Positions 12,001 through 15,000 of a stretch of 57,395 nucleotides of DNA are shown in pieces (position 1 is the stretch's first letter; every line of letters starts with the position of its first letter). This DNA comes from a virus (lineage: Duplodnaviria > Heunggongvirae > Uroviricota > Caudoviricetes): IMG/VR virus record IMGVR_UViG_2718217787_000009; one strand, given 5' to 3'. Made by a program: the position numbers.

Positions 12001-15000
12001 GGAACCAAAAAGCATGCGAGCTCTGCCGTCCGGGGTTGTACCTGCCGTTCACCAGCCGCTGGCGGAAGATAAATCACTACTGCCATTTTTCAGCGATGAG
12101 CGGGTGATCCGTGCTGCGGGTGGCGCTGGTGCACTGTCTGACTGGTTATTACGTCACGTGAAATCCTGCCAGTGGCTACACGGTGATTATCATCACAGCG
12201 AAACCGTCATTCACCGTTACGGTACCGGCGCGATGGTGTTGTGCTGGCACTGCGACAACCAGCTGCGGGAGCAGACATCTGATTCACTGGATCAACTTGC
12301 TCAACAGAATCTGGCCGCCTGGATGATTGACATCATCCGTCACGCAATGAATGGCGCACAGGAGCGTGAATTATCTCTGGCTGAATTATCCTGGTGGGCG
12401 GTCCGCAATCAGGTGGCGGACGCGCTACCGGAAGCGGTATTACGTCGTTCGCTGGGGTTGCGTGCGGAAAAAATCCGCTCCGTATACCGTGAAAGCGACA
12501 TCATACCGGGAGAACAGACCGCCACCAGCATACTGAAGCAGCGCACAAAAAATATTGCGCTACCGCCTCACACCCACCAGCAACAGAACCCACCACAGGA
12601 AAAGACGGTGGTCAGCATTGCCGTTGATCCGGAGTCTCCGGAATCCTTCATGAAACGACCTAAACGTCGCCGCTGGGTAAATGAGAAATACACACGCTGG
12701 GTAAAGACACAGCCGTGTGCGTGTTGTGGTAAGCCAGCGGACGATCCTCATCATCTGATTGGTCATGGTCAGGGCGGAATGGGAACAAAATCCCACGATA
12801 TTTTCACGCTACCGCTGTGTCGGGAGCATCACAACGAGCTTCATGCGGATCCGCTGGCGTTCGAAGAAAAGCATGGTTCCCAGGTTGATTTAATTTTTCG
12901 TTTTCTTGATCACGCCTTTGCAACCGGCGTGCTCGGGTAAAAGAGGTTACTGATGCGTATAGAGTTTGTTTTGCCTTACCCGCCGACGGTGAACACCTAC
13001 TGGCGACGTCGTGGCAGCACATATTTTGTATCAAAAGCCGGTGAGCGTTATCGCCGGGATGTGGCACTTATTGTTCGCCAGCAGCGGCTGAAATTAAACC
13101 TGTCCGGAAGGCTGGTGATAAAGATTATTGCAGAGCCACCGGATAAGCGCCGTCGTGACCTGGACAATATCCTGAAAGCACCACTGGATGTGCTGACGCA
13201 TGCCGGACTTCTCATAGACGACGAGCAGTTTGATGAAATCAATATTGTGCGCGGTCAGCTCGTTCCTGGTGAGCGGCTGGGGATAAAAATCACAGAACTG
13301 GAGTGCGCATGAATAACCACTATTTACAGTTTGTGCGTGAGCAGCTCATTATCGCCACCGCTGATTTGAGTGGGGCAACAAAAGGTCAGCTTGAAGCCTG
13401 GCAGGAGAATGCCATGTTCGATACAGGGCGTTACAGGCGAAAAAAAATCCGGTACCGCGATGAAGTGACTGGAAAAATGATAACGCGGGATAATCCACCA
13501 ATCCCGGGAAAGCAATCGCTGGCGAAGGTGACGTCAATTCCTCTGGTCAGTCCGGTTGAGTTTTCGACATCATCGTGGCGGCGGGCTGTTCTGTCTCTTG
13601 AAGAACATCATAAAGCCTGGTTGTTGTGGTGTTACAGCGGGAGTATTTGTTGGGAATATCAGATCGCGATAACACAGTGGGCGTGGAATGAATTTAATAC
13701 TCAATCCGGTACCAGAAAAATTGCAGGGAAAACGCAGGAACGCCTGAAAAAATTAATCTGGCTGGCGGCGCAGGCAGTAAAAGCAGAACTTTTTGGTGGG
13801 GAAGGTTATGAATACAAGGAGCTGGCATTACTGGTGGGAGTGACAACTAAAAACTGGTCCAAAACATTTACTCGTCACTGGGTTGCAATGAAACACATTT
13901 TTCACCGACTGGATAGTGAGGCTTTATTGTTTGTAATGAGAACGCGTTCAAAACAAAAGGCGGCATTTTCAAAGCAAAGTGTTGCAAAAGTAGATTGAAA
14001 GGCATATATTTCATGCAAATCTGATATTTTGCCGATTTTGTACGTGATGGCAAAAGCAAACAAAACCCGCCCACAAGCGGGTTTTTTTGTGCCACTTATC
14101 TCGGATAGACATGGTGAATGCGCTGGTGGAGGAAGTAAGGGTAATTTTTAACCAGGTGATTCTTGAATGCTTGCAACATTGATTTCGTAACGTTATTATC
14201 CTGCGCCCGGCCCTTTAGCTCAGTGGTGAGAGCGAGCGACTCATAATCGCCAGGCCGCTGGTTCAAATCCAGCAAGGGCCACCATCACATACCGCCATTA
14301 GCTCATCGGGATAGAACGCCAGCCTTCGAAGCTGGTTTCGCGGGGTTCGAGTCTCCGATGGCGGTCCATTATCGGTATTCTGCGTTTTTAGCTCAGCAGG
14401 ACAGAGCAATTGCCTTCTAAGCAATCGGTCACTGGTTCGACTCCAGTACAACGCGCCACACTTATTTTCCCGGCTCGCTTTTGCGGGCCTTTTTTGTATC
14501 TGCGCCACGCCCGGCACATACCAACCACAGAGCCTTTCGGGGGGGGGGGAGCTTACGGAGTGGTCAGTGTGACTTTCTCTGTGGGCAGATCGCTCCCGGG
14601 CGTTGGCTCACCCACCCAAAGGAACGTCACGATGTTTGGTATTTTTGGTAAAAAAAGCCCGCAGAGCGGCAACGGAAATTAAAAAGTTTGAAAAACGCGA
14701 TCTGGCACAGGTGGTGATTAACGCCGCATACCTGGTGGCCTGTGCAGATGGTGAATGTGAGGCATCCGAGAAAGCGAAGATCGAACAGGTACTGCGTAAT
14801 CAGCCTGCGCTGTCCGCGTTTACGTCAGAAATTAATGCGATTAGCGCAACCATTATCGGTCAGCTGGATACGAACTTTAAAACTGGTCGTCGTGCGGCGT
14901 TACGTGAGATCGAGGATGTGAAACACGATACGCGTGAAGCGGAAGATGTGCTGGATGTGGCGGTGGCCATTGCGGAGGCAGACGGCGAAATTGAGCCGGA

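Follow-up and report, generated by a model that had tools for sequence, protein, structure and literature searches.

Why does a prophage carry an uninterrupted run of eleven guanines (G11) shortly before the start of one of its genes, and does the length of that run matter? The question arises at positions 14539–14549 of IMG/VR virus record IMGVR_UViG_2718217787_000009, a stretch of 57,395 nucleotides (nt) of Caudoviricetes DNA that we call the window, where the run lies on the + strand ahead of a TerB-family gene, tciA. A sequence-only reading of this DNA had described a rare poly-G tract about 80 bp upstream of a TerB-like start codon, prone to slipped-strand mispairing, whose length might modulate expression or might be a sequencing artefact. 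The explanation that we favor overall, with a probability of roughly 0.7, is a hypermutable repeat that a T-to-G change created within a conserved leader RNA, in the G-rich strand of its pseudoknotted fold. On this explanation, the G11 run would be prone to slippage and part of the 5′ leader transcribed ahead of the tciA(terB)–tciB moron (accessory cassette) of an O157:H7 lambdoid prophage of the Sakai Sp12 type, and would belong neither to a promoter nor to an open reading frame (ORF).

Length variation of the tract

The eleven consecutive guanines can be read directly from the window and form its longest homopolymer; the second longest is a G10 run at 16141–16150, and all remaining G or C runs have at most seven residues. 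Dinucleotide-preserving shuffles give an expectation of 0.07 G10 matches per window, which bears out the rarity of so long a tract, and the three overlapping matches observed were reached in none of 100 shuffles. The distance to the gene was also given correctly, as the end of the tract is 82 nt from an ATG at 14632 and 86 nt from a TTG at 14636. The tract itself lies outside any ORF.

Uninterrupted mononucleotide tracts of about eight or more residues that differ in length among closely related isolates typify the poly-G/poly-C contingency loci of Neisseria, Haemophilus, Campylobacter and Bordetella. The G11 run shares both properties (with alleles from G9 to G15, of which some differing by a single G may be errors). 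The setting, however, is not the same. Contingency tracts lie within ORFs or in or next to promoter elements, such as promoter spacers, whereas the G11 run is non-coding and stands 3′ of a terminator in a structured leader. To our knowledge, E. coli, which is mismatch-repair proficient, is not known for contingency loci of this kind.

Tract length was compared across isolates in complete genome assemblies. The surroundings of the tract match E. coli O157:H7 chromosomes at 100%, and the matching region of Sakai is annotated as prophage Sp12, a lambda-like phage. Queries made of 40 nt, Gn and 40 nt were run against 5,426 complete E. coli genomes; at this query length, a single indel or mismatch takes the identity below 99%. 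Exact matches were found in 18 records for G9, 105 for G10, 66 for G11, 33 each for G12 and G13, and 16 for G14, and G15 occurs in at least one record (ATCC 43894). This distribution is unimodal around G10–G11, with a tail, and not bimodal. Among reference strains, EC4115 and TW14359 have G11, Sakai G13, EDL933 G14 and FRIK944 G9, and ten further NCBI assemblies with an identical protein have G6 and G9–G12.

The differences extend to strains that are re-sequenced or nearly identical. Strains 3384 and 106 are one G apart at the same start coordinate, in genomes of 5,438,591 and 5,438,592; Xuzhou21 has G13 in one assembly and G14 in another; derivatives of 86-24 have G11 and G12; and a plasmid-cured derivative of ATCC 43894 has G14. 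EDL933 is likewise one G shorter than ATCC 43894, which we take to be EDL933 stock. Tract length is thus polymorphic on very short time scales, although part of the differences of one G may be error. Related isolate sets of single studies, on the other hand, share one allele: G11 in strains 147–149, G12 in strains 107–112 and G10 in five cattle-hide isolates (1130, 2149, 2159, 4276 and 9234). At the population level, the range of G9–G15 at one prophage locus supports a slipped-strand site.

Such variation could also arise if the tract were truly shorter or interrupted and both its length and its variability were homopolymer errors. Long G-runs are generally known to be error-prone on several platforms, near-identical genomes lie exactly one G apart, and in two 86-24 derivatives the G-run and a neighboring A-run both differ. 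Yet many laboratories obtained exact G11 with identical 40-nt flanks, in 66 complete genomes altogether, related isolate sets agree in their alleles, and strains differ by up to 5–6 G (FRIK944, for example, as compared with Sakai and EDL933). Because of this recurrence and coherence, the tract is not an invention of assembly, and we rejected a pure artefact, which seems very unlikely. The suspicion of artefact voiced in the sequence-only reading thus does not hold for the tract as such but may be right for single-G differences.

The tract is among the most length-variable single sites in the otherwise nearly clonal O157:H7 genomes. In outbreak typing by single-nucleotide polymorphisms and indels, and in assembly polishing, the tract and the neighboring A7 should be treated as unstable or error-prone.

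A conserved leader RNA with two pseudoknots

The G-run is contained in a non-coding leader of ~135 nt, and conservation spans all of the sequence between the terminator and the start codon (coordinates in Table 1). Our structural model of this leader, which combines a hairpin at the 5′ end (P0) with a long stem and a pair of pseudoknots (PK1 and PK2), was tested on 16 diverse leaders and fits them well. On diverse leaders, 91–94% of cells are paired, as compared with 35–44% in slid controls, and 10–12 pairs show compensatory changes; none of 500 shuffles scored as high. In the A5 alignment, 91.2% of cells are paired (slid controls, 37–44%), with 12 compensatory pairs and a covariation of 0.253 versus 0.148 in shuffles (0 of 500). 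The structure is thus conserved with compensatory changes, and its position and orientation are constant, directly 5′ of an ORF and including the Shine–Dalgarno (SD) region. Matches to a covariance model, which was built from the nested helices, all end at the SD and ATG, save three truncated copies (L017:9184, L037 and L079). The first folds had given a simple nested long hairpin. Its inner helix is 73% paired on the diverse alignment, as against 94–96% for the pseudoknot model, and we set it aside as the main structure; it is a possible alternative state.

When leader subtypes B–E were included, the covariance-model alignment had the pseudoknot strands out of register, and a direct table of complementarity was used instead. 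Across subtypes, PK1 and PK2 each occur as six distinct complementary pairs. PK1 is 96.3% paired, with three of five pairs compensatory. Jumbo phages have CCGUAGAG:CUCUACGG for it, a further lineage has CCGCAGA:UCUGCGG, and CACAGAA:UUCUGUG, CCAAAGA:UCUUUGG and GAGAG:CUCUC are found across subtypes. The covarying sets of PK2 are CGCCC:GGGCG, CGCUC:GAGCG, GGCUC:GAGCC, UCUCAC:GUGAGA, CGCAC:GUGCG and CGUAC:GUACG. That the strands of each pseudoknot change together across subtypes supports a genuine fold of the + strand RNA. We consider it rather probable that a leader RNA class exists as such.

In P0, the O157 Sp12 lineage has a C·A mismatch at 14503/14516 (GGCAC, where other leaders have GGCGC). 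With this mismatch and the T-to-G change in the G-run, the lineage departs from the conserved fold at two sites.

The tract would form part of the G-rich strand of this fold, for which several partners can be drawn. The strand may pair with a C/U-rich segment (helix P3), with GGCUCACC (helix P2′) or, together with CCUUUC, with the SD region. P3 is 88–93% paired across leaders, mostly via one-sided changes compatible with G-U pairing. In P2′, GGUGAGCY:GGCUCACC becomes GAUGAGCC:GGUUCAUC across subtypes, and GGCTCACC is replaced by GGUUCAUC jointly with its partners in subtypes B and C. The anti-SD pairing, CCUUUC-RG with CY-N-AAAGG, can form in 97.9% of A5 cells; one pair, that of the first tract position, covaries (G-C in 5 sequences, A-U in 9), and most positions are invariant, with few independent changes.

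This conservation bears on the proposal that the run lies in or next to the promoter of the TerB-like gene and that its length sets the −35/−10 spacing or the position of an upstream element. A location ~80 bp upstream does recall the tracts generally known from promoters in Neisseria, Haemophilus or Bordetella. However, a consensus scan gave no sigma-70-like site on the + strand between a tRNA promoter candidate (14171–14199) and the TerB gene, and the idea of a promoter spacer was rejected for lack of a + strand promoter near the tract. Moreover, the surroundings are conserved as base-paired RNA, with G-U pairs that are sensible only in a + strand transcript, and an intrinsic terminator lies 44 nt upstream of the tract, in a unit that belongs to a Q-antiterminated late operon (PMC4104026). 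Promoter phase variation therefore seems highly unlikely here.

Origin of the uninterrupted run

How, then, could a slippage-prone repeat come to stand in a conserved RNA? A pattern scan of IMG/VR gave 120 loci with the same flanks as the tract. The majority have an interrupted run, GGGGGTGAG or AGGGGTGAG. Uninterrupted runs occur in one background as G6, G7 and G11–G13 with CTTACGGAG, in a second as AG6 and AG10 with CTTACGGGAT, and in a third as AG11 with CCATAGGGAAC, for example in phage Evi. Their presence in at least three separate sequence backgrounds indicates that the uninterrupted repeat arose more than once, by a T-to-G change at the interrupting base that was followed by expansion. 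In the O157:H7 prophage, the T of the conserved GGGGGTGAG was replaced by G to yield an uninterrupted G7, which replication slippage then lengthened and shortened. Comparison of the leaders shows this T-to-G origin and the subsequent expansion and contraction to the alleles G9–G15 of present complete genomes. A single T-to-G substitution thus turned a stable, interrupted G-run of a conserved RNA element into a hypermutable repeat, and did so repeatedly.

The G10 run at 16141–16150 lies inside the esterase ORF, where it encodes WGGG. EC4115 and nearly all other records have GGGGGGTGGG at this site (T at 16147, WGVG), and the uninterrupted G10 occurs in only 3 of 817 records. A length change in this run would frameshift the esterase gene. 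The run has the same origin as G11, a T-to-G change beside a G-run. Both long G-runs of the window accordingly resemble products of dislocation mutagenesis at homopolymer borders, in that each consists of a G-run plus a T-to-G change of the interrupting base, the interrupted forms being GGGGGTG at the leader and GGGGGGTGGG at 16141–16150. A T-to-G change at a homopolymer border is the signature expected from primer–template misalignment (a Kunkel-type mechanism), and we infer from this pattern alone that transient misalignment may have produced both runs.

Rather than a length-variable repeat, the run might be a G-quadruplex, in DNA or RNA, or a target for mobile elements. An intramolecular G-quadruplex needs four tracts of at least three G with short loops, and thus at least 15 residues. 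One run of eleven G is too short and can hold no more than three G3 tracts; other GGG tracts, the closest being those at 14583–14585 and 14598–14600, are more than 30 nt away. As to mobile elements, ISEc20, an insertion sequence of the IS110 family, interrupts the same leader in PPompW prophages, precisely at its G-run and following G7. This insertion, however, is one event shared by related prophages, and we regard either role as extremely unlikely. In one PPompW prophage (L002, LC567822.1, 3655–5125), the insertion stands in place of the remaining leader and of the tciA cassette; it is common to a series of PPompW and Stx2a prophages.

Predicted consequences of tract length

It is less obvious whether the length of the repeat affects the gene behind it. 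The partner of the ancestral T (14548) is an invariant A in P2′ and either A or G in P3, and the change of this T to G turns the conserved U-A pair of P2′ into a G·A mismatch. The covariance model scores the window leader at 122.8 bits, as compared with 146.9 bits for the interrupted form. The substitution would remove a conserved U-A/U-G pair, and extra G residues would presumably be accommodated as a bulge or junction that the fold tolerates; in folding calculations, the inner hairpin is retained from G5 to G16. Because the fold appears to tolerate extra G in this way, most length changes probably leave tciA translation unaffected or modulate it only mildly.

If length is relevant, it would act via RNA structure, with extra G extending the pairing with CCCACCC by the SD from about G12 onward. 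A thermodynamic model that leaves out pseudoknots gives the anti-SD helix a probability of 0.03–0.29 for G10–G11 and of 0.65–0.96 for G12–G13. The predicted minimum free energy structure changes at G12, and spare G at G12–G13 are predicted to pair with CCCACCC (14611–14617). Modulation of expression, as raised in the sequence-only reading, thus finds no support in its classical promoter form; as an effect of predicted RNA structure, it is possible.

A stronger proposal is that tract length is a selected, heritable switch or rheostat at the RNA level, in which the SD would be free at G11 and below and tciA translation would be shut off at G12 and above, as spare G paired with CCCACCC by the SD and CCUUU with AAAGG. 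This would be phase variation via RNA structure and not via a promoter or reading frame. The natural alleles G9–G15 do straddle the predicted G12 threshold, the complementarity between the anti-SD segment and the SD region is conserved and includes a covarying pair, and long G-runs have appeared independently in three leader backgrounds. However, the alleles cluster around G10–G11 in a single mode, and most leaders in the IMG/VR sample of 120 loci keep the stable interrupted form. In addition, the same lineage has other leader damage (the P0 mismatch) and a shifted start codon, and the case for a switch is purely computational, from a model that is free of pseudoknots and in which SD accessibility stays flat in the longer construct. 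We consider such a switch unlikely. The same degree of doubt attaches to a wider proposal, in which an uncatalogued class of two-pseudoknot leaders, placed before accessory genes such as TerB/TciA and antirepressor-like ones, would extend from lambdoid prophages to jumbo phages, the G-run would lie in their switching strand, and tract length in O157:H7 would act as an SD-sequestering rheostat.

Several points also weigh against the explanation that we prefer, a hypermutable repeat in a conserved leader RNA. First, variation of ±1 among long-read assemblies may partly be homopolymer error, and the two 86-24 derivatives that differ at both runs look like a case of it. Second, the hypothetical RNA-level effect comes from nearest-neighbor folding, which ignores pseudoknots; predicted SD accessibility drops in the shorter construct only and is unchanged when 30 nt of coding sequence are added. 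Third, the P3, P2′ and anti-SD pairings modeled for the G strand are each compatible with the data. Finally, the covariation is drawn from a modest number of lineages, and the shuffle control was not significant on a first, less diverse alignment.

Start codon and reading frame of tciA

The gene downstream of the leader carries the name tciA in phage JLK-2012. Its product in the window matches the TerB family of Pfam (PF05099) with 53.1 bits (cut-off 24.4) and PHROG 632, "tellurite resistance," with an E value of 2.6e-65. The ORF starts at an ATG in JLK-2012 and Evi, where the A-run within the gene is A6 or interrupted. In the window, the ATG at 14632 has a good SD, and its frame stops after 16 codons; the TerB frame opens at the TTG that lies 4 nt downstream, from which PGAP annotates the ORF as intact. 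The canonical ATG is out of frame because the A-run at 14650–14656 (codons 7–9 of tciA) is A7 instead of A6.

Does this frameshift mark a decaying gene? A7 is the common state of this allele, found in 595 records of many serotypes (counted in the band of 95–99% identity that holds the matches with one indel). The version restored to A6 is exact in only three complete-genome records, one of which is an 86-24 derivative whose sibling has A7. Because A7 is common and co-occurs with an intact interrupted leader (L219), we do not read it as proof of decay; pseudogenization is further weakened by the intact PGAP annotation.

Distribution of the leader and a second copy

The leader extends well beyond O157:H7. 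It is conserved in prophages of Pantoea, Franconibacter, Enterobacter pulveris and Pseudescherichia, and likewise in phages of Klebsiella and in one whose recorded host is Actinobacillus. The jumbo Machinavirus phages that infect Erwinia and Salmonella (roughly 240 kb; L147, L148, L149–L151 and L194) have a leader of 74–77% identity, which lies between a tRNA gene and the TerB plus DUF3927 pair and whose pseudoknot strands carry compensatory changes; the tciA–tciB gene pair is thus present in jumbo phages, too. The covariance model matches a leader before every close TerB gene, and TerB homologues of at most 49% identity have no such leader.

The window itself holds a second, diverged copy of the leader, which lacks the G-run. 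It stands directly 5′ of a P22_AR_N antirepressor-like gene (19252–19821), between the lysozyme gene and an ORF at 19975–20442 that we take to be Rz, and it keeps all helices with different sequences. At IMG/VR loci, leaders of other subtypes stand in front of a KilAC antirepressor gene and of unknown ORFs.

With a 5′ untranslated region of ~135 nt, helices supported by covariation, a pair of pseudoknots and an anti-SD segment that shares sequence with aptamer-like helices, the leader resembles translational riboswitches and other SD-sequestering leaders, including RNA thermometers. It differs in two respects. First, it matches none of the 4227 families of Rfam 15 (E up to 1–5; 14497–14634, 18900–19400 and the leaders of JLK-2012 and ChrisDB were searched). 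Second, it precedes unrelated genes (TerB, two antirepressor-like kinds and unknown ORFs), which argues against a metabolite of one pathway. A riboswitch tied to TerB chemistry is weakened by the same observation, as the difference in downstream genes argues against a TerB-specific ligand.

The cassette as a whole is also familiar in part. Homologues of TciA/TerB and TciB/DUF3927 are found in the tciA–tciB–tciC genes of phage P1 and in lambdoid moron cassettes downstream of Q/pR′, and the location, with Q on one side, the lysis genes on the other and an STnc100-family small RNA (sRNA) directly after the cassette, is that of the lambdoid cassettes (PMC4104026). In contrast to these known elements, the leader and its G-run are without a description in the literature that we searched. 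Occurring twice in this prophage and again in very different phages, and uncatalogued in Rfam, the leader RNA is the more interesting product of this follow-up and could show how phages regulate the accessory genes that lie within their late operons.

The surrounding prophage locus

The gene order around the tract is Q, three tRNAs, a terminator, the leader, tciA, tciB, the STnc100 sRNA, an esterase gene, holin and lysozyme (Table 1). The moron site of O157 prophages has been placed downstream of pR′, and prophage sRNAs between the moron genes and the esterase (Tree et al. 2014, PMC4104026). The tciA–tciB locus is this site.

Table 1. Coordinates of the leader elements, the tciA–tciB cassette and neighboring features in the window
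Feature	Position	Strand	Remarks
Antiterminator Q	13303–13998		Pfam Phage_antiter_Q
Three phage tRNA genes	14209–14458	+	CAT anticodon, Arg-TCG, Arg-TCT; ARAGORN, Rfam tRNA matches, EC4115/Sakai annotation
Intrinsic-terminator-like hairpin and T-run	14472–14495	+	closes tRNA cluster, directly 5′ of leader
P0 hairpin (GCGCC, loop ACGCCC, GGCAC)	14502–14517	+	A5: 100% paired, 4/5 pairs compensatory
PK1 5′ strand, CCACAGAG	14525–14532	+	pairs with CTCTGTGG at 14577–14584
Anti-SD segment, CCTTTC plus first tract G	14533–14544	+	complementary to CCC-A-CC-C-AAAGG at 14611–14622
G11 mononucleotide repeat	14539–14549	+	ancestral GGGGGTG (T = 14548) plus four extra G
P2′ 5′ strand, GGGGAGCT (ancestral GGTGAGCY)	14546–14553	+	pairs with GGCTCACC; from complementarity table, leader subtypes A–E
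PK1 3′ strand, CTCTGTGG	14577–14584	+	
TCGCTCCC, alternative partner (helix P3) of G-run strand	14590–14597	+	
PK2 3′ strand, GGGCGT	14598–14603	+	pairs with P0 loop 14507–14512
GGCTCACC, 3′ strand of P2 and P2′	14605–14612	+	invariant in all tciA leaders
SD region, AAAGGAA	14618–14624	+	read from sequence; invariant across leaders
tciA, TerB-family gene	14636–15064	+	PGAP start TTG
tciB (DUF3927), conserved partner gene of cassette	15061–15228	+	
STnc100-family sRNA	15233–15405		Rfam match 101.8 bits, gathering score 47
Esterase gene	15543–17393		PGAP: SASA-family carbohydrate esterase; holin and lysozyme follow
Second, diverged leader copy, without G-run	19112–19254	+	42.5 bits, E about 1e-8, full model covered

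Compared within 10380–18720, the window is identical to neither reference strain: it differs from EC4115 by five substitutions and no indel over 8,341 bases, and from Sakai by one substitution and the G11/G13 difference over 6,093 bases. The tRNA with the CAT anticodon is annotated as tRNA-Ile in reference genomes, and the terminator hairpin at the 5′ edge of the cassette is conserved or compensated in other genera. The esterase gene we take to be phage nanS-p. The STnc100 element sits between tciB and this gene and ends at a terminator (15430–15456); phage JLK-2012 carries it as well.

Close behind Q lie a promoter-like site (13982–14010) and a strong hairpin with a T-run (14062–14088). The segment 13990–14095, which resembles isrK, isrJ and leader families weakly and below threshold, is presumably the pR′/tR′ short late leader. 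Elsewhere in the window, Rfam matches at gathering level identify a sok antitoxin RNA at 11119–11293, with hokD annotated adjacent in EC4115, and a DicF RNA at 4223–4274 on the − strand.

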